A stretch of 64,000 bases of DNA, taken from contig JAVVGF010000001.1 in the NCBI GenBank assembly GCA_032249235.1, positions 80,064 to 144,063 on the forward strand, read 5' to 3'. The position numbers and the translations under genes were made by a program. This DNA comes from Thermoproteota archaeon. Its GTDB lineage: Archaea > Thermoproteota > Thermoprotei > Gearchaeales > Gearchaeaceae. Shown here piece by piece: positions 22,329 through 35,412 of the stretch (the stretch's first letter is position 1; every line of letters starts with the position of its first letter). The notes below the pieces were generated by a model that made no database searches, was not told the origin of the DNA, and saw only the letters and a program-made list of their open reading frames with translations.

Positions 22329-24041
22329 CTAATAGCCAGGTATATCTAATTTTAATAAGCTTTTTTCATAGTAATCCTTTATTTCTTTTGTAAACTCCTT
22401 ATAATCTATGATATTTAGTATAGCAGGTAGTCTTATAGCTTCACCATATACAAGAGCCTCTTTTCTTTTTAAATTTGAAATGACAGGAATGAACAAATTT
22501 TGAAATTTTAATCCGCGTGTGCATGCTTCAATATCTTTTTCACTGGTTAATGTGAAAATGAAATAATTCCAAAGCATTGCTAAAACATCTTCATGAATTT
22601 GCGAAGGTCTTTGATCAATTATGCAAAGAACAATACCTCTTTTCCTTAGTTCTCTTGCAATGTTTCCAAATGCGGTTTTGTAATAAAGTTCGCCAGATAA
22701 AAACTTATGAGCTTCTTCAAGGAAAATAATCAATTTATACTTGAGCTGTTTGCCTTCCATTATATCGCTTATAGCTCTCTGCCATATCTTTTTAGATAAA
22801 AGATGTGCGATCAACGTATAAACTCTTGCATCATCTCCATATCTTCCAAAGCTTATTATAATGCTTCTTTCGCCTTTAAATAGCTCCTCTACGATTTCTT
22901 TCACACAATCTTTCTTATTTGGATTTAAGAATTCATATCTTCTTAATTGATTTAATCTAACTTTTCCTGATCTAAATGACTGTACAGCTCCAGCTCCTAG
23001 CTTTTGTATCTCTTCTTCAATTTTACCTTCTAAATATGCTTTCCTCTTTTCAAAATCTTCTCTATTTTCAAAAAATCCCAACAAATACAATATCCAAGTA
23101 TGATCCTTTTTGTAAATTTCATCTCTCAGAACGCTATCCTTTTCGAATATTTGATTGATTATTCTTCTGTAGCTACCTAAATAATCTATGAATGCATCTG
23201 ACAAATTCAAATTTTCTTTTAAAATTTCTATATCTTCCATTGTGAGCTCTTTAGGGTCAATCGTAAATTCTTCTAAACCAAACTCTCTAGCTAAAATCGA
23301 ATCAGGTGTATATACTTTAAAATCGTTCTTAAAAAGCAATCCAACACCATCTGCATAGTCGTTACCATGCATATCTTTTACTTTTAGCCCATACTCGCTA
23401 TGCATATCGAATATTAAAAGCTTCGTTTTCTTATCTTGATCATGAAATCTATTCGTTAAAATAATCAATGAAGCTAAGATATTGCCTAAATGAGTCTTAC
23501 CTGTCCCAGATTTTCCAAATATACCGAAGGATCCTCTAGTTATTAATTCAACGTTAATGGGTATTTTAACCTTTAAGTCTAATTCTTTTATTGCATGCTT
23601 TGTATATCCTATGCCCCAACTTGTCTTATTATCCATTTTTCCATAGAAATTCTCTATATCTTCCTCTTTCGGTAAATAAATTCTACTTTCATGTACAGGA
23701 ATTGTATCTACTTCTTCAACACTACTTTGGTTTGTTTGAGCTAAAGGTATTATTAAAAATGAAGTTGAAAACTTACCTAAATTACTATAGGTCTTTATAG
23801 TCGTTTCAGCAATTTTTTTGCTTTCTCCTTCTTTAGCTAGTTGTTTAGCTAATTCACTAGCTTTATCTGAACCTGATGAATGGAAGATCTCGGCTACTAA
23901 ACCCAAATATTTTCTCTTTGCACCTTCAACTACTATCAATGAGTTTGTTGCAATATCTTCTGTTAAGTTATAATCCTTTAATTGAGCAGTTAACCCACGT
24001 GTAGAGCTTGCATCAACTATATAAGCGAATTCTTTATCCAT
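22329..24041 (-). CDS. herA: HerA-like hexameric DNA helicase/ATPase
   Basis: An N-terminal HAS-barrel-like region ('YIVDASS...LIVVEGAKRKYLGLVAEI'), a Walker A 'GIFGKSGTGKTHLG', and 'IIFLEEAHKF' plus 'CIIDQRPSQI', the FtsK/HerA-type Walker B and sensor region, are present in 570 aa. Confidence 0.7.
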   Translation of the reverse strand: MDKEFAYIVDASSTRGLTAQLKDYNLTEDIATNSLIVVEGAKRKYLGLVAEIFHSSGSDKASELAKQLAKEGESKKIAETTIKTYSNLGKFSTSFLIIPLAQTNQSSVEEVDTIPVHESRIYLPKEEDIENFYGKMDNKTSWGIGYTKHAIKELDLKVKIPINVELITRGSFGIFGKSGTGKTHLGNILASLIILTNRFHDQDKKTKLLIFDMHSEYGLKVKDMHGNDYADGVGLLFKNDFKVYTPDSILAREFGLEEFTIDPKELTMEDIEILKENLNLSDAFIDYLGSYRRIINQIFEKDSVLRDEIYKKDHTWILYLLGFFENREDFEKRKAYLEGKIEEEIQKLGAGAVQSFRSGKVRLNQLRRYEFLNPNKKDCVKEIVEELFKGERSIIISFGRYGDDARVYTLIAHLLSKKIWQRAISDIMEGKQLKYKLIIFLEEAHKFLSGELYYKTAFGNIARELRKRGIVLCIIDQRPSQIHEDVLAMLWNYFIFTLTSEKDIEACTRGLKFQNLFIPVISNLKRKEALVYGEAIRLPAILNIIDYKEFTKEIKDYYEKSLLKLDIPGY

Positions 24042-24696
24042 GTTTATTTATTTTCAATGCTTTTTCAAATGCTCTATTCACAGAATCTATGAGATCTCCA
24101 AGATAGTTTTCTTCCAAATTATTATGTAGCGTTCTTAAAAGTATGTACATTTCCTCTTCATTAAAATATTTCATAAGATTTCTAAAATAAACTTCGAGAA
24201 AATAATTGAATAAGTTCCTTTCGTCGCTTGGCAAAGTGTTATATATAATCGGTATATAACGAATTCCTTCTTCATTTATCAAATGCATATCCCTTATCAA
24301 TTCCTTATCAGGAATAAAAACGAGATCATGGATAAGTGGGATTTTATTAGGTCTTCCTTGTTTTATTCCATTACTATCTACATATGCTACTATAATAGCT
24401 CCGCATGTTATAGCGAATTTATCAAGAATGTCTTTATAATCCATACCTAATTCTTCTCTCTTTCTTCTTAATGGTTTTAGTCTATCAGTAAGAGGGATTA
24501 AAGGCTCGATTGCTTGAGACGTAACAATTCCGATATGAATTTCATCTCCTGCTAGAGCTGCTACAAATGAAGAATAATCTGGAATGTGATAGAAATCATA
24601 AAGTTGGAATTCAAAATACTTATGTTGTGCTTTTAATATTTCTCCTATTGCTTCCTTTGATTCTTTACTCTTGAATATTTCAACCCAATTTTTCAT
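24034..24696 (-). CDS. hypothetical protein inserted between nurA and herA
   Basis: The 220-aa ORF shows no motif I can assign. It overlaps both neighbours by 4-8 nt, consistent with co-translation. Confidence 0.5.
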   Translation of the reverse strand: MKNWVEIFKSKESKEAIGEILKAQHKYFEFQLYDFYHIPDYSSFVAALAGDEIHIGIVTSQAIEPLIPLTDRLKPLRRKREELGMDYKDILDKFAITCGAIIVAYVDSNGIKQGRPNKIPLIHDLVFIPDKELIRDMHLINEEGIRYIPIIYNTLPSDERNLFNYFLEVYFRNLMKYFNEEEMYILLRTLHNNLEENYLGDLIDSVNRAFEKALKINKHG

Positions 24697-25811
24697 ATTA
24701 TTCTTAACAGTTTTCTTTCAAGCTTTTTGCTCATCTTAACAGGATATATACCAGGAAGTTCCTTATCTAGCATGCTTAAAATGAATCTTTTTTCTCTTTC
24801 AGATAAATAAGCTTGTTCATGTGCTCTTTCCATGCAATATGGATAACCGCCGCCTATTATGCTTTGTAAAAACACGATTTTGCTTATTTCATCTACCATG
24901 TTTTCAAGTTCTTCAGGAATTTCTACACGAAGTACGTTTCCTTCAGATACTTTAATGTAAAACGTATAGATTGTTTTATTAATCAGAGTGCATGGTAAGT
25001 TTTCAATCTTCAAAAGAGGGCTTCTTTGACCCACTTTAAGGATCTTATCGAAAAGTTGTTTATCGCTGATCTTTATTTCCTCTAGCTTGGTATCTTTATT
25101 AAGGAAATTTATAAAAGGTCTAGCCATACTATAAAAGACTGCAATAGGATAAGTTCCTTTTTTAATCATCAAGTTTATGTTTTCAAATAATTTCTCCATT
25201 ATTTTTTCAATAACATTTTCTTTCATGCTAGCAAGAAAACTGGAAGATAAACTTTCATCTAAGAAAACGTAGGAGCCTTTTATATCTATCCTTTTGCTAA
25301 TTTCTTCAATTATATTTGCATATTCCTCCAATCTTAAATATTGTAGAATCCAAGAAGAAATCCTGCTTTCCTCGATTATTTCCTCAACTTTTTTCTTTGT
25401 ATAAAACTTTGGAATGCTCTCTTCTAGGTATTGATTTTTTTCATAATCGTAGAAGAAATAGCCAATATTTATTAAGATGAAATAAGGCGTGATATGATGA
25501 GAAGTCATTTCGCTAGTATCTAATGCAAGTACTTTTTTATTCCTTATTCTATCGAAAGCCCATCTATTTTCGCTCAGATTTTGATTTATGTTAGTTATAT
25601 CAATGCAATTCTTGAATTTGATCCCCTCAACTGGATAAGCAAACTCCTTTCTTTTATCCTTGATAAGCCAACTCTCTAATGCTTCATCCTTAAATTCAAA
25701 ATAAGCTTTTTTAAGTCTATCAAGAACATTTTTCTCAAGTTCCATATCTTCAATTAAATCTGAGCTTACTTTCTTAATCACTTTTATAATTAAAGCTTGA
25801 TTCAGCATCAA
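24693..25811 (-). CDS. nurA: NurA-like 5'-3' nuclease
   Basis: The 372-aa protein has 'VLALDTSE' and 'VFLDESLSS', which resemble NurA motifs I and III (DGS / DGSL) with substitutions. It is in an operon with herA. Confidence 0.5.
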   Translation of the reverse strand: MMLNQALIIKVIKKVSSDLIEDMELEKNVLDRLKKAYFEFKDEALESWLIKDKRKEFAYPVEGIKFKNCIDITNINQNLSENRWAFDRIRNKKVLALDTSEMTSHHITPYFILINIGYFFYDYEKNQYLEESIPKFYTKKKVEEIIEESRISSWILQYLRLEEYANIIEEISKRIDIKGSYVFLDESLSSSFLASMKENVIEKIMEKLFENINLMIKKGTYPIAVFYSMARPFINFLNKDTKLEEIKISDKQLFDKILKVGQRSPLLKIENLPCTLINKTIYTFYIKVSEGNVLRVEIPEELENMVDEISKIVFLQSIIGGGYPYCMERAHEQAYLSEREKRFILSMLDKELPGIYPVKMSKKLERKLLRII

Positions 25812-25838
25812 TCTAAAATGAACAAATCAATATTTATG

Positions 25839-26368
25839 TTAGCTTTTTTTCAAAACTTTAATTAGCTCATTATATAGCTCATTAAAAATTCTGTTCCAGT
25901 TTTCTCTTGTTAAAAAGATCAATTTCTTTTCTCCTATAACCATGTTCGCGTAGTTCAAATATTTTCTATGCAATGTTGCAAGCAAATGTTTTTCAGACCT
26001 TAATATTTTTTCAATAGTTATTTTAAAATTAATGCTCATGAATTCCATTGCACCAATTTCATCACAAACAATTAAATCGCTTTCATTTAATGCTCTCTCT
26101 AAAGCTTTTACACCTATTTCTTCTAAATCTTTTAGGTTTATTATATAAGCGCCAAACTTAGGTCCTTGGAATATTTGTTCTTTTGATGCCAAAATTCCCT
26201 TTTCATTATATTTCAAATCTAGAATGCTAAAGCCTATTCTTGTATTATTTTTTCTTATTTCCTGCGTTACGAATCCATCATATTTTATTCCTTCAGTCTT
26301 TAGTTTCTCTATCAAGTTAAGTATTAATGTAGTTTTACCTGATCCAGGCTCGCCTGTTATTAACCATT

Positions 26369-26378
<10 letters not shown>
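25839..26378 (-). CDS. nucleoside-triphosphatase THEP1 family
   Basis: The 179-aa protein has 'WLITGEPGSGKTTLI' (P-loop), 'DGFVTQEIR' and 'LIVCDEIGAME'. Confidence 0.7.
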
Positions 26379-28325: not shown

Positions 28326-28357
28326 GACTTATAAGAATTCTTAACTCTATATAAATT

Positions 28358-28840
28358 GTGCTTCCTGAAGCAATAGAAAAACTTTTTGAAGAAGCTCTAG
28401 TTGCTGAGTTCGCAACTATAGATCATCATGGTATAATTCATGTTCATCCAATGTTACCTTTGTATAAAAAAGGTCAAGGATATTTGGTTTTCACTTCAAG
28501 CATTTTATTCAGTAAGAAAGTAGAGTACATAAGAGAAAATCCAAAAGTCTCTGTTTTCTTCAATAATGAAGCAGGTGTTAGAACTAAAGAATATTTTCCA
28601 GTCTTAGTCAAAGGTTTAGCAAGCTATGATGATTCAGATATCCATGAAAAATGGATGAAATATTTAGATTTATGGAAAAGAAAAGAACCATACATTGGTA
28701 AGTTATTAAAACAGAGATTTGCATTGCCTCTTTTCTGGGAAAGAGTGATCATAGAAGTAAAACCTATCAAGATTTATGCATGGAGGAATGGAGCTATAAA
28801 TGAAGAACCAATAGTAATCGATGCTGAAAATGAGATTTGA
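28358..28840 (+). CDS. pyridoxamine-5'-phosphate-oxidase-like FMN-binding split-barrel protein
   Basis: 'FATIDHHGIIHVHPM' and 'IRENPKVSVFF' follow the PNPOx-like pattern. Confidence 0.6.
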   Translation: MLPEAIEKLFEEALVAEFATIDHHGIIHVHPMLPLYKKGQGYLVFTSSILFSKKVEYIRENPKVSVFFNNEAGVRTKEYFPVLVKGLASYDDSDIHEKWMKYLDLWKRKEPYIGKLLKQRFALPLFWERVIIEVKPIKIYAWRNGAINEEPIVIDAENEI

Positions 28841-30164
28841 AGATCTAATTAAATATATAAAAGAAAATTTCAAGGAGAAGCCATCAATCCATTTCATAGA
28901 TGAAGATGGATTTCCTATAGCATATGCTGTAGATGTAGAGATATCGCATGAGATAATAATCAAAACTCCAAAATATTTGAATATTAAGGATAAAGAAGTA
29001 AATCTCGTCTTCAATCATATAACCGAGATTCCTAGCGGCGGTTATACTGATAGGAGATATATTGTAATAAGGGGTAAAGTTCAAGATATCGAAGGGAATT
29101 TAGTATTAAAACCAACTAAATATTACAATTGGGATGAAAAACAATTACCATTCGTTAGCTATTGCGAAAAGAACGTAAACAGAGCCAAAGAGTATCTAGA
29201 GAATTTATCTAAGTTGAAAGGAAAGCCTGTAAAACCAAAAATCGGAGGCTTTTGGTTGATATTCAAAACGATAAGGTTACCTTTCTTAATTGCAAGTATA
29301 ATTCCTGCTCTAATAGGAATAATGATCGCTATCAACGAAGGTTTCATAGATATAATTTCTGCATTTTTGATCGTAGCAGGCGTAGCTATAATACATGCGG
29401 CATTGAATGTTGCGAACGATTATCATGACCACATAACAGGAGCTGATGTGATCAATTTAACACCTACTCCTTTTTCAGGAGGCTCTAGAGTAATTCAACA
29501 TGGTCTTATTGAACCTTCAACTTCCTTCAAGATCTTTTCATCTCTTTACATCGCTGGAATAGCAATAGGATTATACTTCACTCTATTAAGGGGCATTTGG
29601 GTTCTAATAATATTAAGCATAGGAGTTTTCATAAGCTATTTCTATAGTGCAAAGCCTTTGAGATTCGCAGAAAAAGGATTGGGAGAAATAATGGTAGGAA
29701 TAGGTTTCGGTCCAATAATAACACTAGGTTCATATGTAGCGATGACAGGTAAGCTATCTCTCATTCCTTTATTAGTTTCGATACCTATAGGTACACTTAT
29801 AGCTTTAATATTATATGTCAACGAAATACCTGATAGAGAATGGGATATTAAAGCAGGAAAATTAACTTTAGTTGCAAGAATGAAAAAAGAAAAAATAGCC
29901 AAAGGCTATTTGATCGGGATAATAATTACTTATCTTTCTTATGTATTATGTCTATTTTTAAGAGCATTACCAATTTATTCTCTTCTTGTTTTAGCATTGT
30001 TACCTTTGGCAATCAAAGTCTATAAAGGAATAAAATCTGGATATCATGATCCATATTCGATGATTCCAGTATGCGCGACACATATAAGCTTTTATATCTA
30101 TTTTGCTCTCCTAGTATTGCTTTCTTTAATTTTAAATCTTATGTCGGTTAATTTACCACTTTAA
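28821..30164 (+). CDS. UbiA-family (MenA-like) prenyltransferase with N-terminal split-barrel (PNPOx-like) domain
   Basis: The N-terminal ~150 aa are soluble ('SIHFIDEDGFPIAYAVDV...NLVFNH'). They are followed by 8-9 TM helices carrying 'NDYHDHITGAD', the first Asp-rich UbiA motif. Confidence 0.6.
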   Translation: MLKMRFEDLIKYIKENFKEKPSIHFIDEDGFPIAYAVDVEISHEIIIKTPKYLNIKDKEVNLVFNHITEIPSGGYTDRRYIVIRGKVQDIEGNLVLKPTKYYNWDEKQLPFVSYCEKNVNRAKEYLENLSKLKGKPVKPKIGGFWLIFKTIRLPFLIASIIPALIGIMIAINEGFIDIISAFLIVAGVAIIHAALNVANDYHDHITGADVINLTPTPFSGGSRVIQHGLIEPSTSFKIFSSLYIAGIAIGLYFTLLRGIWVLIILSIGVFISYFYSAKPLRFAEKGLGEIMVGIGFGPIITLGSYVAMTGKLSLIPLLVSIPIGTLIALILYVNEIPDREWDIKAGKLTLVARMKKEKIAKGYLIGIIITYLSYVLCLFLRALPIYSLLVLALLPLAIKVYKGIKSGYHDPYSMIPVCATHISFYIYFALLVLLSLILNLMSVNLPL

Positions 30165-30165
30165 G

Positions 30166-30239
30166 TGGGGTCGCCAGGATTTGAACCTGGGACCACGCGG
30201 TCCCAAGCCGCGCATTCTACCAAGCTAAACTACGACCCC
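30166..30239 (-). tRNA. tRNA-Pro (anticodon UGG)
   Basis: The reverse complement folds as GGGGUCG / D-arm / CGCGG-CUUGGGA-CCGCG / T-arm GUUCAAAUC / CGACCCC + A. The 7-bp acceptor stem and anticodon UGG are clear. Confidence 0.85.
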
Positions 30240-30293
30240 TTAATTTTTTTAAATAAAGACCAATTTTAATTTTTCTTCATCAATAAAAGATTT

Positions 30294-31328
30294 GTGATCA
30301 CTAAGATAATCAAAGTCAATCCTTTAAACTTCACAAAAGATGAAATTAAGGAGGCAATAGAATTAATAAGAAACGGTGAACTTGTAGCTTTTCCTACCGA
30401 GACAGTCTATGGATTAGGAGCTGATGCGACTAATTCAAATGCAGTCAAAAAAATATTTTTTACAAAGAGAAGACCTTTAGATAATCCTGTAATTGTTCAC
30501 ATCTCTGATTTGAATAATCTAATAAACGTAGCCTTAGAAGTGCCTGAAGAAATCTTTGATTTAGCAAGAAAATTCTGGCCAGGACCTTTAACTTTTGTTC
30601 TTAAAAGAAATCCCTCAATAGCTCCTGAAGTTTCAGCAGGCTTAGATACAGTTGCTGTTCGTTGTCCTGCACATCCAGTAGCTCTTGAATTGATCAAATC
30701 TTCAGAAAAGCCAATTGCTGCGCCTAGTGCAAATAAAGCAGGCAAACCTAGTCCTACTAGAGCTGAGCATGTGCTTGATGATTTCAAAGATGAAATTCCT
30801 CTAATAATAGATGCTGGAAGCACAATTTATGGTGTTGAATCAACAGTTATTGATGTTACAAAAAAACCTCCTGTTCTTTTAAGACCTGGCGCAATGCCAA
30901 TTGAAGAAATAATGAAATATATCGGCGAGATTCATATACCTGAATTTGTAAGAGGACTAGGTAAATTTGAAGGTCCTGCATTATCTCCTGGCTTGAAATA
31001 TAGACATTATTCGCCTGAGAAACCTTTAATTTTGGTCGAAGGAGAAGACAAACTCAATGCTCTAAAGAAACTGTTAGAAGAATACAAGAATGCAGGTTTA
31101 ATACTTACGAAAGAAACTGCAAATTTCTTTAAAGATCAAAAAGAGCTAATAATTATAGGTAGCAAAGATAATCTTTTTGAAATCGCATTCAATCTATTTT
31201 CTTCCCTAAGAGAAATGGATAAAAGGAATATCGATGTAATAATCATCGAAGGGGTTGAAGAAAAAGGAATTGGTTTAGCTATCATGAATCGCTTAAGAAA
31301 AGCTGCGAGCAAAATAATAATAAGCTAG
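30294..31328 (+). CDS. sua5: L-threonylcarbamoyladenylate synthase Sua5/TsaC (YrdC + Sua5 domains)
   Basis: 'AFPTETVYGLGADA' is the YrdC motif, and the 344-aa length includes a C-terminal Sua5 domain. Confidence 0.85.
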   Translation: MITKIIKVNPLNFTKDEIKEAIELIRNGELVAFPTETVYGLGADATNSNAVKKIFFTKRRPLDNPVIVHISDLNNLINVALEVPEEIFDLARKFWPGPLTFVLKRNPSIAPEVSAGLDTVAVRCPAHPVALELIKSSEKPIAAPSANKAGKPSPTRAEHVLDDFKDEIPLIIDAGSTIYGVESTVIDVTKKPPVLLRPGAMPIEEIMKYIGEIHIPEFVRGLGKFEGPALSPGLKYRHYSPEKPLILVEGEDKLNALKKLLEEYKNAGLILTKETANFFKDQKELIIIGSKDNLFEIAFNLFSSLREMDKRNIDVIIIEGVEEKGIGLAIMNRLRKAASKIIIS

Positions 31329-32281
31329 TGAAAGTTTCTAACATCATGAAATACATAACTTTAGAAAGTCTTGATGTAAAAGTTTCAGCTATAGGTTTAG
31401 GATGTTGGCAATTCGGAGATCCTAATTGGGGCTGGAGTAGTGAACTGAATGAAGAAAAAGCAATTAAGATTATTCAAGAAGCCTTCAATTTAGGAGTCAA
31501 TTTCTTTGACACTGCAGAGATTTATGGCGAAGGTATTTCAGAACAAGTGTTAGGAAAAGCGTTGAAGGGAATAAGGGATGAAGTTGTCATAGCTACAAAA
31601 GTTGCTCCTTTTCATTTAAGATACAAAGACGTAATCAAAGCTTGTGAAGGAAGTCTTAAAAGGTTGAATACGGATAGGATAGACTTATATCAGATCCATT
31701 GGCCTCACAATTATATTCCTTTAAGAGAAACTGCAAAAGCATTGGATGAATTATATCTTCAAAACAAGATTAGAGCTGTAGGCGTAAGCAATTTTCCCGT
31801 CCCTATGATAAGAGAATTGAAAAGATACTTGAAGCATGCTCCGCTAGTATCGAATCAAGTTCAATACAATCTCATTGAAAGATTAGCAGAAAAGGAAATC
31901 ATAAGATATTGCAAAAGAATGAAAATGATCATAATAGCTTACAGTCCTTTAGCGCAAGGATTGTTAACAGGAAAATATAACTTAACAAACATTCCTACAG
32001 ATAATATAAGAAAAGGTAAAGCGTGGTTCAAAAAAGAAAATTTTGAAAAGATAATGAATGTATTAAAGGAACTTGAAATCATAGCTAAGAAGTATGAGAA
32101 AAAGCTCAGTCAAATTGCTCTAAATTGGATCATTTCGCATTCAAATACGATAGCCATACCTGGAGCTAAAAGCATTGAGCAGCTTAGAGAAAATATTGAA
32201 GCTGGAAATTTTCAGCTTAAAAGAGAAGATTTCAGATACATCTCAAAGCTTACAGAAAATTTAGAATTAGACTATTTTTAA
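31328..32281 (+). CDS. aldo/keto reductase
   Basis: 'GLGCWQFG', 'FDTAEIYG' and 'IDLYQIHWP' are AKR motifs. Confidence 0.8.
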   Translation: MKVSNIMKYITLESLDVKVSAIGLGCWQFGDPNWGWSSELNEEKAIKIIQEAFNLGVNFFDTAEIYGEGISEQVLGKALKGIRDEVVIATKVAPFHLRYKDVIKACEGSLKRLNTDRIDLYQIHWPHNYIPLRETAKALDELYLQNKIRAVGVSNFPVPMIRELKRYLKHAPLVSNQVQYNLIERLAEKEIIRYCKRMKMIIIAYSPLAQGLLTGKYNLTNIPTDNIRKGKAWFKKENFEKIMNVLKELEIIAKKYEKKLSQIALNWIISHSNTIAIPGAKSIEQLRENIEAGNFQLKREDFRYISKLTENLELDYF

Positions 32282-32308
32282 ACTTTTTAGTCTCTTTATT
32301 TATTTTTA

Positions 32309-34186
32309 TTGTTTATGAAACTCAAATTCATTAGTGGTTGTTCAGCTGGAAAGCCAAATTTGTTATTGCTAGTTAAAGATAATGGAAAATCTGCTGTTTT
32401 CGATTGTGGTTTTCAAAACGAAATGCCAGATTTCAGCAAAATAGAAGGCGAAGTCGAAGAAATATTCATAACACATGCGCATGCAGATCATATAGGCGGT
32501 CTAACAATTCTCAAAAGGATGTTTCCTAATGCAAGAATATTCATGAGCGAACCTACTATTGAGATAGGTAAAATTACAATTAGTAGCTTAGAAATTAAGA
32601 GCAAATACAAGATACCTATGAATGAAATCGAAGAAGTTATGAGCGATGTTGAAACGATAAGAGATGGAATTATTTTAAAATTCGACGATTATAAGGTATT
32701 ACCGATATATGCAGGACATTTGTTAGGTGCATTGTCTTATTTGATAAAATTTGATTCTCATACTTTACTCTACACAGGAGATATAAGCATTTCAGAACTT
32801 CCTCTTGCGGGGAAATTTGAATTAGCACAAAGCAACATCGACTTGATAATTTCTGAGAGTAACTTTAGTTTAGGCTTAGATACTTTTAGGTCTTCATTGG
32901 AGAAAATTTCGCAAATAATTGCTTCTGCAATAAAAGTTAAAGGAAGAGTTGTTATGCCTTTGCCTGCAGCAGGAAGAGCACAAGAGATAGCTGTTTATTT
33001 ATCTTACAAGATGCTAGCAGGAGAAATTCCGCATACTACAATATATGTTGATGGAAGCGTCAAAGATGTGATGCGAGTTTATGATAAATATTCATCCAAT
33101 TTAAGAGGATATTTAAGTGAATATTATACAAAAGTGCGTTCTGCAGGTTTGATAAAACTTGTCTCGGATGATATGAGAAAAGAATTAGTTAGAAATGAAA
33201 GGCCTTTCATCGTGCTAACTACATCTGCGAATCTAAAATATGGACCGAGCGTTTATTATGCAGAGGAAGTTTTTCTTGATGAAAATTCATTAATCTTATT
33301 CACAGGTCGTGTTGATGAAAAAACACTTGCAAAGAAAATTCTATATTCAAAAAAAGGTGAGCTAGTTGAGTTTCGTGGAGTAGCTTTAAGCAGGAAATGC
33401 AATGTTCAAATGAATGAATTAAATGAACACGGAAATGCAACTGATCTAATTGAAATGGTAAATAAAATTTCTTCAAAATCAATCCTGCTTACACATGGCA
33501 ATGATGTTGTGAAACAATACTTAATGCAGTATTTTCTAAAAGAGAATTCAAGATTTTCGGTATTTGATCCTTTAGAAGGAGATTTTATTAACTTAAATTT
33601 GTTATTTTCCATAGTTAAATCACAGAAAAAATTTGATGACGAAGAGTTTTTTGAAGCCTTATTGGAGAGAATTATAGAATCGATAAGAATCGAATATGAT
33701 AAAGGTAAAATCCTTACGCGCGATTTTATAGAAGAATTGCTGAGCAAGAACGATATATTATATGAAATACGTAATATAGAAAAAGCAAAACAACTATTTT
33801 TCATCGCATTTAGATATGGGGTTAAATATTCATACAAAAATCACAAAATAGATTTCAAATTCGTAAGCGATCTCATGGAAATCATCTCAGAAATCATCTC
33901 AGAAATTCTCGGTAAAAGTGCTTCGAATAAACTCTTCAACCAATTGAATGAGACCTCACCAAAATTCTTTAAGAATCTCGTTTTAAAAGGAGGGACGATG
34001 AAAGCTAACTTGGGCGTAGAAATAATTTCCTTAGAAAATCTGAAAGAGATATTGAATGATTTCGAAACCAATTTCTCTAGATTTGGAATTAAGGCCCCTT
34101 CTATTAGCGAAATTAAAAAGCTCTGTGAGCAAGAATTGATCATCGATAATTCACTTAGGAATAATTATTTGAGAGTATTCGGTTAA
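32309..34186 (+). CDS. beta-CASP metallo-beta-lactamase ribonuclease (aCPSF/RNase J-like) with ~200-aa C-terminal extension
   Basis: 'ITHAHADHIGGL' is the HxHxDH motif at residue ~55, so no N-terminal KH domain is present. 'LTHGN' is motif C. The C-terminal extension contains a tandem 12-nt duplication. Confidence 0.7.
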   Translation: MFMKLKFISGCSAGKPNLLLLVKDNGKSAVFDCGFQNEMPDFSKIEGEVEEIFITHAHADHIGGLTILKRMFPNARIFMSEPTIEIGKITISSLEIKSKYKIPMNEIEEVMSDVETIRDGIILKFDDYKVLPIYAGHLLGALSYLIKFDSHTLLYTGDISISELPLAGKFELAQSNIDLIISESNFSLGLDTFRSSLEKISQIIASAIKVKGRVVMPLPAAGRAQEIAVYLSYKMLAGEIPHTTIYVDGSVKDVMRVYDKYSSNLRGYLSEYYTKVRSAGLIKLVSDDMRKELVRNERPFIVLTTSANLKYGPSVYYAEEVFLDENSLILFTGRVDEKTLAKKILYSKKGELVEFRGVALSRKCNVQMNELNEHGNATDLIEMVNKISSKSILLTHGNDVVKQYLMQYFLKENSRFSVFDPLEGDFINLNLLFSIVKSQKKFDDEEFFEALLERIIESIRIEYDKGKILTRDFIEELLSKNDILYEIRNIEKAKQLFFIAFRYGVKYSYKNHKIDFKFVSDLMEIISEIISEILGKSASNKLFNQLNETSPKFFKNLVLKGGTMKANLGVEIISLENLKEILNDFETNFSRFGIKAPSISEIKKLCEQELIIDNSLRNNYLRVFG

Positions 34187-34225
34187 AATTAGATTAATAA
34201 GATTTTCCTTATTTTAAATAAATTA

Positions 34226-34327
34226 GCGGGAGTCATCTAGCCTGGCTATGATGCCGGACTCATAATGCAAAGCCGGGGCAGGCATGCGTGGAATCCGGTG
34301 TCCCGGGTTCAAATCCCGGCTCCCGCA
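34226..34327 (+). tRNA. tRNA-Met or tRNA-Ile2 (anticodon CAU) with ~28-nt intron after position 37
   Basis: The acceptor GCGGGAG pairs with CUCCCGC and the T-arm is CCGGG-UUCAAAU-CCCGG. The anticodon arm CCGGA-CUCAUA[intron]A-UCCGG gives anticodon CAU. G1-C72 and the absence of a GGG/CCC anticodon stem argue against an initiator tRNA. Confidence 0.8.
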
Positions 34328-34370
34328 TACGTTTATTATTCTAATAGTCTATTCTAATCATAAATGAAGA

Positions 34371-35397
34371 TTGCAATAATAGGCGCAGGACTGCAGGAGC
34401 TAATTGTGCATATTGGGCTGCAAAAGAAGGTCATGAGGTAATCTTATTCGAAAGAAACAAAACATTAGCTCATAAACCTTGTGGGGAAGCTGTTTTTAAA
34501 GAAGCTTTCGATTACGTTCCTATAAAACCTGAAGGATCTAAATGGTATTTAAATTATGTACACAAGGCTGAAATTTACTTTGATAATAAACTGATCATTG
34601 AAGTCGATACAAAACCTTTTGAAGGTTTTATAGTAAATAAAAGGATGTTCCTTGAAGAACTTGTAAATGAAGCGAAGAATGAGGGTGCTAAATTAAAATT
34701 AGGTGAAGAATTCAATGAAAAAGAAAATTATGATTTAATAATCGATGCTGGAGGATTTGCTTCTACATATGCAAGAAGGAAAGGCTTACCTTATCATGGC
34801 TATAAGCTAGCGCCTGCAATTTGTGGTTATGGAAGGTCGAATAAAATCAAGGAAGATACATTATACTTCGAAGTTTATAGTTTCGGCTATGCATGGATAT
34901 TCCCTTACGGTAAAAATTATTGCAATTTCGGAATTGGAGGGCATACTATTTTTAAAGAGGAGTTGCTCGTTAATCTAAAGAGATTTCTAAAATCGAGATG
35001 AATTCTAAGCTTGAAGGAGCAGGCTTTCCTTCATATGGTCTTTAGAAAAATTAAGTATAGGTAACATAAGAGTTGCTGAGACTCTGCAGGTATGGTAATG
35101 CCTATAAGCGGTGAAGGGATAAGATTTGCATTGTATGCTGGAAAGATATGCTACAAAGATGATTATGAAAAATTATTTTCAGAGAAATATGGTAAAAATC
35201 TGAAGGAAGGTAAGAAGATACTTGATTTATGGCTAAGCTTAAATCAAGATGAGCAAAAAGAATTATTGAAGAGCTTAGATCCTAAAATTTTACCAAGAAT
35301 TTTTCTTGAAGGATATAGACCTAATTTGATGGAGGCTTTGAAATTGGTTGTAAAGCCAAACATATTGAAGAAATCGATTAAGCATTTTATTAAATAG
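34371..35397 (+). pseudogene. geranylgeranyl reductase family FAD-oxidoreductase, frameshifted and interrupted
   Basis: The first frame reads 'MKIAIIGAG', then a stop after 25 codons. A second frame continues '...AAKEGHEVILFERNK...DLIIDAGGFAS...' to a stop at 35001. A third piece (35092-35397) has 'PISGEGIRFALYAG'. The Rossmann GxGxxG motif itself is broken. Confidence 0.6.
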
Positions 35398-35412
35398 AAG
35401 CATAATAACTTC

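Follow-up and report, generated by a model that had tools for sequence, protein, structure and literature searches.

A conserved two-gene cassette pairs a PNPOx-like split-barrel protein with a UbiA-family prenyltransferase carrying a predicted split-barrel domain

Introduction

Why would an integral-membrane prenyltransferase carry one soluble split-barrel domain at its N-terminus and be encoded directly behind the gene for another? This question is raised by two overlapping genes, ORF1 and ORF2, in contig JAVVGF010000001.1 (GCA_032249235.1) of a Thermoproteota archaeon. The analysed stretch of DNA, 64,000 nt in length, is referred to as the window, and all positions are counted within it. 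An earlier note on this DNA read ORF1 as a stand-alone split barrel and ORF2 as a second, flavin- or deazaflavin-binding split barrel fused to a MenA-like prenyltransferase, in an architecture that it did not recognise as characterised. That view still appears to fit: the fused domain (hereafter the N-domain) has no Pfam family, annotations are generic ("prenyltransferase", "PNPOx family protein"), and full-text searches of a subset of the literature returned no description of this fusion.

The two-gene locus

The features of the locus are presented in Table 1. Both ORFs were found at the coordinates claimed for them, overlapping by 20 nt, and the strings quoted in support of the claim are present, with "IRENPKVSVFF" at ORF1 residues 58-68 and "NDYHDHITGAD" at ORF2 residues 199-209. 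ORF1 and ORF2 form a two-gene operon. An alternative ORF2 start, ATG 28830, is used in its closest homologs and would shorten the overlap to 11 nt.

Table 1. Features of the ORF1-ORF2 locus, in window positions.
Feature	Positions	Strand	Description
ORF1	28358-28840	+	160 aa, GTG start; stand-alone PNPOx-like split-barrel protein
TSSILFSKK motif, ORF1 residues 46-54	28493-28519	+	Putative cofactor-phosphate site
ORF2	28821-30164	+	447 aa; split-barrel N-domain (predicted) and MenA/UBIAD1-like UbiA prenyltransferase
N-domain, ORF2 residues 1-148 (~145 residues)	28821-29264	+	Predicted barrel core 22-105, helices 111-133, basic pre-membrane linker
GGYTDRRY signature, ORF2 residues 73-80	29037-29060	+	G74, Y75, R78 and R79 invariant
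UbiA-superfamily domain, ORF2 residues 149-447	29265-30161	+	Nine predicted TM helices
First Asp-rich motif, N196-x2-N199-D200-x2-D203-x5-D209-x2-N212	29406-29456	+	TM2 cytoplasmic end
Cap-loop signature PTPFSGGSR, ORF2 residues 215-223	29463-29489	+	Specific to this prenyltransferase clade
Second Asp-rich motif, Y332-x-N334-x3-D338-x3-D342-x4-K347	29814-29861	+	TM6-TM7 cytoplasmic loop
tRNA-Pro(TGG)	30165-30239	-	Convergent; marks the 3' boundary of the operon, no functional part

ORF1 is a split barrel with a putative cofactor site

ORF1 is identical to NCBI MDT7891248.1, which is annotated as "PNPOx family protein". Its match to Pfam PNPOx_N (E = 7.6e-6, 26.7 bits) falls narrowly below the gathering score of 28.1, and precomputed PF01243 matches are present on many of its homologs. 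Among solved structures, the ORF1-family profile best matches 3ec6, a general stress protein 26 (E = 1.6e-6), and it also matches 3f7e, 2hq9, 2i02 and PNPOx, a set of FMN-, FAD- and F420-binding split barrels. The membership of ORF1 in the PNPOx-like split-barrel superfamily is secure, as the earlier note had proposed; judged by sequence, the protein appears GSP26/FDOR-B-like, a likeness that stops short of a named subfamily.

The cofactor-phosphate element of the superfamily (S/T-x-K/R ahead of a helix, then "NP.V") is present in ORF1. In a 46-sequence alignment of the family, T46, S47, S48, L50, S52 and K54 are invariant, and N61 and P62 vary little or not at all. In 3ec6, 3f7e and 2hq9, the TSSILFSKK motif has the S/R-K-K element as its aligned counterpart, and we take the role of the motif to be phosphate binding, as in the wider family. 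The closest family models are those of F420-dependent PPOX-class enzymes, with TIGR03618 matched by 43 of the 46 family members and TIGR03667 by 35 (best E = 3.9e-11), all at scores below the cutoffs (24.1 bits vs 79 for ORF1 of the window). Given that the best solved-structure match is an FMN/FAD-type general stress protein, the cofactor of ORF1 is ambiguous. These motifs and matches suggest that ORF1 is probably the cofactor-binding subunit of the pair.

The N-domain of ORF2 is a predicted, degenerate split barrel

The N-domain has no match among Pfam or NCBIfam families, its profile has no significant match among PDB sequences, and pairwise BLASTP against ORF1 is not significant (E = 0.076). 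The ORF1 family is the only one to which a relationship was obtained, by hhalign (90% probability, E = 1.6e-6). A split beta-barrel fold is confidently predicted for the domain, which upholds the second barrel of the earlier note, and the structural neighbours of the model include FDOR/PPOX-class and heme-binding split barrels. Residues 106-119 are ordered only in the full-length ORF2 model, not in a model of the N-domain alone.

The family has conserved motifs of its own, namely FNH (64-66), WDE (104-106) and PFxxYxE (110-116) in addition to the GGYTDRRY signature, and the RRY, WDE and PF motifs are retained in the stand-alone and triple-fusion variants described below. In the hhalign alignment, the N-domain is gapped opposite the "SSILFSKK...NP" element of ORF1, and its model has coil at residues 49-58, where the cofactor-phosphate element would sit. 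Because of this gap and coil, the N-domain itself is probably not a flavin or deazaflavin binder, and the cofactor role that the earlier note assigned to the fused domain is better placed on ORF1. The family is rare: an exhaustive search found 139 clusters among 1.84 billion representatives, almost only in the pair and fusion architectures described here.

ORF2 carries an intact MenA/UBIAD1-like prenyltransferase

Pfam PF01040 (UbiA) matches ORF2 residues 160-400 with E = 1.3e-29 and a score of 103.6 bits (cutoff 34.2), and the top NCBIfam matches of residues ~146-440 are MenA models, in line with the MenA-like UbiA domain read earlier. All MenA equivalog cutoffs are nevertheless missed, with scores of 127.6 vs 264 for NF004751, 117.9 vs 277 for NF004749 and 68.5 vs 102.15 for TIGR00751. 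Since these scores lie far below the cutoffs, the substrate of the prenyltransferase need not be DHNA or any other naphthoquinone. The closest solved structure by sequence is UBIAD1 (8djk, E = 3.5e-11). The AF2 model of full-length ORF2 (pLDDT 94.3, pTM 0.88) has nine hydrophobic helices, where eight or nine had been claimed, and a Foldseek search with this predicted structure retrieved DGGGPS, UBIAD1, AfUbiA and ApUbiA, with target-normalised TM-scores of 0.63-0.77.

The prenyltransferase active site is intact: the residues named in the two Asp-rich motifs of Table 1 are invariant alignment columns, with N199, D200, D203, D209, D338 and D342 unchanged among 76 sequences. Both Asp-rich motifs and the N-domain lie on the K/R-rich cytoplasmic side of the predicted topology. 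The cap-loop signature has the clade consensus P-x-[FYV]-[SN]-GGSR, and of the 120 top homologs, 119 have its GGSR core, as do all variant fusions. When the two are aligned, UBIAD1 shows a 7-residue gap in the cap-loop segment directly upstream of this signature.

The pair is inherited together across phyla

More than 120 full-length ORF2 homologs keep the fusion (89-99% coverage), and their hosts are Caldarchaeales, Bathyarchaeia, other Thermoproteota, one Asgard-like genome, Actinomycetota and Chloroflexota. Of 45 non-redundant loci, 44 have an ORF1-family gene immediately upstream of the N-domain gene; the remaining locus is truncated by a contig end. Seven further loci show the same order, for a total of more than 50 informative loci, and the same pairing was recovered when the search was started from the other side, with three distant ORF1 homologs. 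Junctions between the ORF1-type gene and the N-domain gene range from -20 to +18 nt.

These data bear on the suspicion that the architecture is an artefact or a coincidence, i.e., a mis-called start or a meaningless appendage, with ORF1 lying by chance beside an ordinary MenA to which it is unrelated. The lack of a family match for the N-domain and its weak BLASTP score against ORF1 speak for such an artefact, yet the domain has residues that are invariant across phyla, its fold is predicted confidently, its adjacency to ORF1 extends to lineages in which it is a separate gene, and the exhaustive search places it in hardly any other architecture. Conservation of the fusion across phyla excludes a mis-called start, and the conservation data as a whole refute the artefact reading, whose remaining probability we regard as negligible.

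Several variant architectures were found, and in these the prenyltransferases of the fusions carry the same clade signature. P0325 is a natural fusion of ORF1 and N-domain in a single chain; P0272, P0357 and P0358, mutually 54-55% identical, are N-domain-PNPOx-UbiA triple fusions; P0359 and P0360 are direct PNPOx_N-UbiA fusions. Split barrels have been fused to this prenyltransferase clade recurrently and independently. In a Bathyarchaeia subgroup, the split-barrel pair stands alone, with no prenyltransferase within 7 kb, from which it follows that the pair can function, or at least persist, unfused. The Asgard-like locus keeps ORF1 despite a third barrel fused in, which complicates a simple 1:1 heterodimer.

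Not every candidate variant was accepted. P0298 and P0262, apparent ORF1-N-domain-UbiA fusions, were discounted given their high-GC, frameshift-like low-complexity C-termini, and P0254, P0261 and P0274 begin with long extensions of Ala/Pro-rich low-complexity sequence, which were rejected as domains.

Proposed mechanism

We tentatively propose, with somewhat under even confidence, that ORF1 and ORF2 act as one two-subunit enzyme, in which the two split barrels form a heterodimer that sits on the prenyltransferase and readies a (naphtho)quinone head group for prenylation, by either reducing or presenting it. ORF2 would be the integral-membrane aromatic polyprenyltransferase of MenA/UBIAD1 type, with its cytoplasmic N-terminus, a degenerate split barrel, docked beside the active-site cap. 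ORF1, from the same tightly coupled operon, would be the cofactor-competent barrel that pairs with the N-domain, and the resulting heterodimeric split barrel would be tethered to the membrane and have just one working flavin or F420 site. The target of this module may be an aromatic head group, with a naphthoquinone or a similar quinone as the most likely one; this group would be reduced to the electron-rich quinol, or otherwise held and presented, just before the polyprenyl chain is attached. Given such a substrate, the system would belong to respiratory-quinone biosynthesis or salvage.

The complementary motifs, TSSxLFSKK in ORF1 against a gap and separate invariant residues in the N-domain, favour pairing of the two barrels. 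Strict adjacency, the natural fusions and this complementary motif loss indirectly support an association between ORF1 and the N-domain. For the reaction itself, there are two precedents. UBIAD1 is inactive unless a reductant is supplied, since menadione has to be converted into the hydroquinone before it can be prenylated (PMC4398444), and Ddn and other FDOR-A split barrels use F420H2 to reduce menaquinone (PMC8498797). The lineages that host the cassette are among those reported as F420 producers. From these points we infer, as a reasonable reading, a coupled redox-prenylation step. Against it stands the fact that DHNA, the normal substrate of MenA, is a hydroquinone from the outset, so that no reductase is required.

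The split-barrel pair might instead transfer no hydride, and serve as a non-redox carrier, chaperone or regulator that binds a ligand (an aromatic precursor, a lipid product or a tetrapyrrole) and either hands it over to the prenyltransferase or itself gates this enzyme. We consider this unlikely, although a serious competitor. It would account for the loss of the cofactor motif in the N-domain, the invariant Arg-Arg-Tyr and WDE of which could bind a carboxylate or propionate, and for the one lineage in which the pair persists with no prenyltransferase fused to it. It does not sit well with ORF1, however, which keeps a cofactor-phosphate motif that is invariant across its family and is most like models of F420-dependent oxidoreductases, nor with the canonical PNPOx_N domains that are fused onto the same prenyltransferase clade.

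Genomic context and pathway links

Clustering of all ORFs across the 45 loci revealed no third neighbour of the pair that is conserved across lineages. ABC/MFS transporters, SMC/ScpA and amino-acid metabolism genes were rejected as partners, their proximity being lineage-specific synteny only. Annotation of the full 64-kb window revealed no genes for quinones, isoprenoid chains or respiration; men, mqn and polyprenyl-synthase genes are not linked to the pair here or at most other loci, and men/mqn head-group genes are absent among the conserved neighbours in the 45 loci. Of the menaquinone, futalosine and UbiX/UbiD-type genes whose co-occurrence the earlier note had suggested examining, none was found linked; the one exception of a related kind is a UbiE-like methyltransferase adjoining the pair in two related loci of a single actinobacterial lineage, a neighbour that speaks for the quinone proposal. 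This absence of linked men, mqn and polyprenyl-synthase genes counts against the quinone-pathway proposal.

A substrate other than a classical quinone has to be weighed at this point. The UbiA domain might prenylate a flavin-, deazaflavin- or phenazine-like head group into a membrane-anchored redox carrier resembling methanophenazine, with the split-barrel heterodimer making or holding, and perhaps finishing, the head group. Among membrane prenyltransferases of the UbiA type, one that acts on dihydroxyphenazine is known (PMC4044012); quinone biosynthesis is unresolved in many archaeal lineages (PMC11459464); and the missed MenA cutoffs together with the clade-specific cap loop point in the same direction. 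We nonetheless regard such a carrier as improbable: no phenazine or other head-group biosynthesis genes are linked to the pair in any locus examined, the prenyltransferase sequence is clearly closest to MenA and UBIAD1, and fold resemblance is the sole basis of the idea.

The prenylation of tetrapyrroles has precedents in heme O synthase and chlorophyll synthase, and a heme-related system was also considered, with barrels that bind heme as HugZ/HutZ do and a UbiA domain that farnesylates or otherwise prenylates a tetrapyrrole. The heme-binding barrels among the structural neighbours, the presence of hemE and hemH within 8 kb of the pair in one actinobacterial locus and a weak ChlG match of ORF2 (E = 3.4e-7) are compatible with it. 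The ChlG match is outscored by the MenA models by ~30 orders of magnitude, however, the heme O synthase models returned no match for ORF2, and heme genes are not conserved neighbours in the 45 loci. A heme O synthase-like protein was judged unlikely on these NCBIfam model scores, and the heme-related system as a whole appears very improbable.

Comparison with known systems

On the prenyltransferase side, the nearest known systems are MenA and UBIAD1. MenA (models TIGR00751 and PRK06080) has the UbiA fold and the NDxxDxxxD and DxxxD...GK.TL motifs in common with ORF2 residues ~146-440, for which it supplies the best-scoring curated families, and public pipelines give this name to ORF2 homologs. 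Unlike MenA, ORF2 scores far under the equivalog cutoffs, carries the N-domain and the clade cap-loop signature, and always occurs with an ORF1-type partner gene; no linkage to men or mqn genes was seen in the window or among the conserved neighbours in the 45 loci. The name "MenA" is weakly grounded on hundreds of public proteins, some of which have 131-134 aa and no prenyltransferase domain whatsoever.

Human UBIAD1, a menadione/menadiol geranylgeranyltransferase (8djk), is the solved structure closest to ORF2 by sequence and one of its top structural matches. Its need for quinone to quinol reduction prior to prenylation (PMC4398444) is the step proposed here for the split-barrel module, yet UBIAD1 itself lacks a reductase domain, whether fused or dedicated, and its identity to ORF2 is ~20%.

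On the split-barrel side, FDOR/PPOX-class proteins (Ddn, Rv1155, MSMEG_3380; TIGR03618, TIGR03667) have their fold in common with ORF1 and, by prediction, the N-domain, and they occur in similar taxa, i.e., Actinomycetota, Chloroflexota and archaea reported as F420 makers. Known FDORs, however, are soluble or peripheral homodimers, with no degenerate paralogous partner fused to a prenyltransferase. The GSP26/COG3871 FMN/FAD proteins (3ec6, 2i02) share the "SKK..I..NP.V.V" motif and the C-terminal strand with ORF1, which differs in a highly conserved insertion of ~15 residues ("EPYI....K.R.ALPLFWER") and in its obligate genomic partner.

A further parallel is Coq12 of Schizosaccharomyces pombe, a PNPOx/FlaRed-like protein required for coenzyme Q synthesis, some orthologs of which are fused to prenyl transferase domains according to its authors (PMC10279924). 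Like ORF1 and the N-domain, it is placed in the split-barrel superfamily, and it is genetically required for quinone biosynthesis; Coq12 differs in belonging to a flavin-reductase-like branch, in being eukaryotic and mitochondrial, and in acting upstream, in p-hydroxybenzoate synthesis.

Significance

Respiratory-quinone synthesis is unresolved in many archaeal lineages, complete menaquinone pathways being predicted in only some of them (PMC11459464), and this compact cassette is a candidate for carrying out the prenylation in Caldarchaeales, Bathyarchaeia and their relatives. Should the less probable prenylated-cofactor carrier prove correct, a previously unknown membrane-anchored electron carrier would exist in Caldarchaeales, Bathyarchaeia, Asgard-like archaea and some Actinomycetota and Chloroflexota. 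Should the proposed quinone mechanism hold, ORF2 would be the first UbiA-family prenyltransferase to have, physically attached, a reductase or presenter dedicated to its aromatic substrate, a need that UBIAD1 assays meet only through an added chemical reductant. The N-domain would then represent a new split-barrel family, absent from Pfam, and the pair would exemplify a split barrel that is an obligate heterodimer and in which one of the subunits is degenerate.

Locus organization

The overlapping same-strand ORFs described in the earlier note were found exactly (see the table). For ORF2, the closest homologs use an in-frame ATG at 28830 rather than 28821, which would reduce the overlap to 11 nt and remove three residues; the conclusions are untouched by this choice. 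Given the divergent inositol-monophosphatase (IMPase)-family gene upstream and the convergent tRNA gene downstream, ORF1 and ORF2 constitute a two-gene operon. The tRNA gene begins one base past the ORF2 stop, hence ORF2 has essentially no 3' untranslated spacer. In the very short spacer upstream of ORF1, a TTATAAG read by eye lies 23-29 nt 5' of the GTG, and this would fit leaderless transcription from an archaeal TATA box. NCBI labels ORF1 a 'pyridoxamine 5'-phosphate oxidase family protein' (MDT7891248.1), nothing more specific, and ORF2 only a 'prenyltransferase' (MDT7891249.1).

The 64-kb window (G+C approximately 31%) belongs to a 'Thermoproteota archaeon' MAG. Its remaining genes have housekeeping roles: translation, tRNA maturation, replication, HerA/NurA and TatC. 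The 220-aa ORF between HerA and NurA is unannotated and has no Pfam match. An Rfam tRNA match (102 nt, 47.6 bits) was not called by ARAGORN in a scan of 30000-34500, and is probably an intron-containing archaeal tRNA. Downstream, the first of two short ORFs has a sub-threshold match to the geranylgeranyl reductase (GGR) catalytic domain (23.7 bits, gathering score 27), and the surrounding frame contains five stop codons. Here a GGR-family gene may have been disrupted or frameshifted, leaving the sole isoprenoid-related trace within the window.

Features of the window and configurations of the split-barrel and prenyltransferase modules
Feature	Location	Strand	Description
HerA-NurA block	window 22329-26378	-	four genes: HerA-like (DUF87), 220-aa protein, NurA, NTPase_1
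IMPase/ORF1 spacer	window 28326-28357
TTATAAG	window 28329-28335
ORF1	window 28358-28840	+	160 aa, GTG start
ORF2	window 28821-30164	+	447 aa; 20-nt overlap with ORF1
tRNA-Pro(TGG) gene	window 30165-30239	-	convergent, adjoins ORF2 stop codon
Rfam tRNA match	window 34226-34327	+
Frame with stop codons	window 34345-35412
Short ORF, GGR match	window 34645-35001	+
Short ORF	window 35092-35397	+
Configuration (a)	window		ORF1 + N-domain-UbiA fusion; common form
Configuration (b)	13 soil Bathyarchaeia loci; L052		ORF1 + stand-alone N-domain, 131-134 aa
Stand-alone N-domain, example	L046 6947-7351
Configuration (c)	P0325		ORF1-type and N-domain in single 310-aa chain
Configuration (d)	P0272, P0357, P0358		N-domain-PNPOx_N-UbiA triple fusion, 590-605 aa
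Three-barrel system	L054 7518-9818		ORF1-family gene, then 605-aa N-domain-PNPOx-UbiA protein
Configuration (e)	P0359, P0360		canonical PNPOx_N fused straight to UbiA
P0360	L055 8001-9506		501 aa, direct PNPOx_N-UbiA fusion; 7.2-Mb ENA contig

Domain composition of ORF1 and ORF2

Membership of ORF1 in the PNPOx-like split-barrel superfamily, as previously claimed, is secure, and it belongs to no named subfamily. It scores near threshold against Pfam PNPOx_N (26.7 bits, gathering score 28.1) and weakly matches F420-dependent PPOX-class NCBIfam models. In the alignment of 46 ORF1-family sequences (A2), 43 members match TIGR03618 and 35 match TIGR03667, all below cutoffs. Among solved split barrels, the A2 profile best matches general stress protein 26 (3ec6, E 1.6e-6), and also matches F420 reductase MSMEG_3380, FAD-/FMN-binding proteins and PNPOx itself. 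The element 'TSSxLFSKK...NP.V', invariant in A2, aligns with the same element of these cofactor-binding split barrels.

The second split barrel and its fusion to a MenA-like UbiA prenyltransferase were likewise borne out. In the domain search proposed for it, the ORF2 N-domain fell in no described sequence family, yet structure prediction gives it a split-barrel fold: Foldseek matches this part of the model to Rv2991, Rv1155-F420, HutZ and similar structures. It has lost the cofactor motif that ORF1 retains, and the domain fused to the prenyltransferase is probably not the flavin or deazaflavin binder that was proposed.

Membership of the remainder in the UbiA superfamily is secure (PF01040, residues 160-400, E 1.3e-29). 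Among curated families this part matches MenA models best, each far below its equivalog cutoff; by sequence, its nearest relative of solved structure is human UBIAD1 (E 3.5e-11). Foldseek retrieves DGGGP synthase, UBIAD1, AfUbiA and ApUbiA for this part, and no solved chain spanning both parts. The model of the whole protein, which is of very high confidence (pLDDT 94.3, pTM 0.88), has nine hydrophobic helices, within the eight to nine anticipated. The active site is intact, with invariant motifs N199-D200-x2-D203-x5-D209 and D338-x3-D342. Given that loops of cytoplasmic parity hold nine K+R against two outside, the N-domain and both motifs are placed at the cytoplasmic face. Residues 106-119 are ill-defined when the domain is modelled alone but fold into an ordered helix when the whole of ORF2 is modelled, an indication that they pack against the prenyltransferase.

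Distribution and variant architectures

The full architecture is present in all 120 best ORF2 matches (approximately 435-470 aa, query coverage 89-99%), from archaea and bacteria; named sources include Caldarchaeum/Aigarchaeota, Calditenuaceae, Bathyarchaeia, Nitrososphaerota MAGs, Actinomycetota and Limnocylindria. The cap-loop signature P-x-[FYV]-[SN]-GGSR occurs in 119 of these and in every variant fusion; the alignment with UBIAD1 shows a 7-residue gap in the human protein immediately before it. Scanning GTDB species representatives for PxGGYT[DEN]RRY yielded 43 loci, each with at most 47% identity to the window protein.

By HMM analysis, 44 of the 45 non-redundant loci, the window included, have an ORF1-family gene directly 5' in the same orientation, and the lone exception is truncated by a contig end. 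This adjacency recurs in additional loci (actinobacterial, Chloroflexota and metagenomic) and in reverse look-ups from three distant ORF1 homologs; the junction ranges from -20 to +18 nt in ten loci with gene calls. ORF1 and the N-domain are thus obligately co-inherited, and the reading of fusion and pairing as artefact or coincidence, to which we give almost no credence, is effectively refuted.

When all the ORFs around the cassette were clustered, no third gene recurred across lineages; the quinone head-group genes sought were not among the conserved neighbours. A convergent UbiE-like methyltransferase (PF01209) lies 3' of the cassette in two related actinobacterial loci (L003, L049; 9.6-10.4 kb). 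Two Limnocylindria-type loci (L048, L050; 3-7.4 kb) carry a divergent three-gene ABC-2 exporter 5' (ABC_tran with NodI_C, two ABC2_membrane).

The N-domain family is rare: an exhaustive profile search of 1.84 billion cluster representatives returned 139 clusters at E <= 0.001, 88 of them at E <= 1e-10. Classification with our own HMMs and follow-up gave five configurations. No UbiA gene lies within 7 kb of configuration (b) pairs. JGI calls the stand-alone N-domains (loci L032-L047; cluster P0215, with 24 members in one 90% cluster) '1,4-dihydroxy-2-naphthoate octaprenyltransferase', a name propagated from the fused form, even though they have no prenyltransferase domain. Given that P0357 and P0358 each share only 54-55% identity with P0272, the triple fusion is real and recurrent. 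Locus L054, the one long contig with this form (2.85 Mb, ENA), where a bona fide ORF1-family gene immediately 5' of the fusion brings the total to three split barrels, looks Asgard-like; its surroundings include archaeal ribosomal proteins, an Arf/Ras/Roc-family GTPase and a weak SNARE match. Configuration (e) loci have neither N-domain nor ORF1 gene nearby. The P0360 gene, on a contig inferred to be bacterial, is 3' of KefC-type antiporter and Flavodoxin_2 genes and approximately 6 kb from NQR subunit genes. Judging from these sequences, split barrels have been joined to this GGSR prenyltransferase clade several times, in differing ways, a comparative pattern that speaks strongly for functional coupling.

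Proposed function

Split barrels of the PNPOx/FDOR families are usually dimers, with ligand sites contributed by both chains. ORF1 and the N-domain may accordingly pair as a heterodimer, whose single functional flavin or deazaflavin site would be tethered next to the prenyltransferase cap. The most parsimonious chemistry would be 'reduce-then-prenylate', the aromatic acceptor being reduced before it is prenylated. This order is favoured since UBIAD1 is inactive without reductant, which its authors attribute to the need to convert menadione to hydroquinone before prenylation (PMC4398444), since split-barrel enzymes of the FDOR-A group, Ddn among them, reduce menaquinone with F420H2 (PMC8498797), and since the cassette's host lineages are reported F420 makers.

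More generally, we tentatively consider that the acceptor is quinone-type and the pair a redox or presenting module, a reading somewhat short of probable. Against it, the prenyltransferase does not reach the equivalog thresholds for MenA, no reduction is required by DHNA, the substrate of MenA itself, and head-group pathway genes are not linked to the cassette. Moreover, one lineage keeps the pair with no prenyltransferase fused to it, and another keeps ORF1 beside a third barrel. That the pair is instead a non-redox carrier or regulator module is less likely; that the prenylated head group is flavin-, deazaflavin- or phenazine-like, giving a new membrane carrier, is improbable, and a heme-related system more improbable still.

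Although ORF2 probably works like an aromatic prenyltransferase of the MenA/UBIAD1 type, filing it under MenA is unwarranted: it scores below the curated thresholds, and no pathway genes are linked in the window or among the conserved neighbours. The literature search found no description of a split-barrel/UbiA fusion, in line with the earlier note's view of the architecture as uncharacterised. The closest published idea is that some Coq12 orthologs are fused to prenyl transferases (PMC10279924), Coq12 being from another branch of the superfamily. The cassette does not amount to a categorically new system. As a clean module conserved across domains, it reveals widespread over-annotation as 'MenA' and gives access to direct tests of quinone prenylation in archaea.
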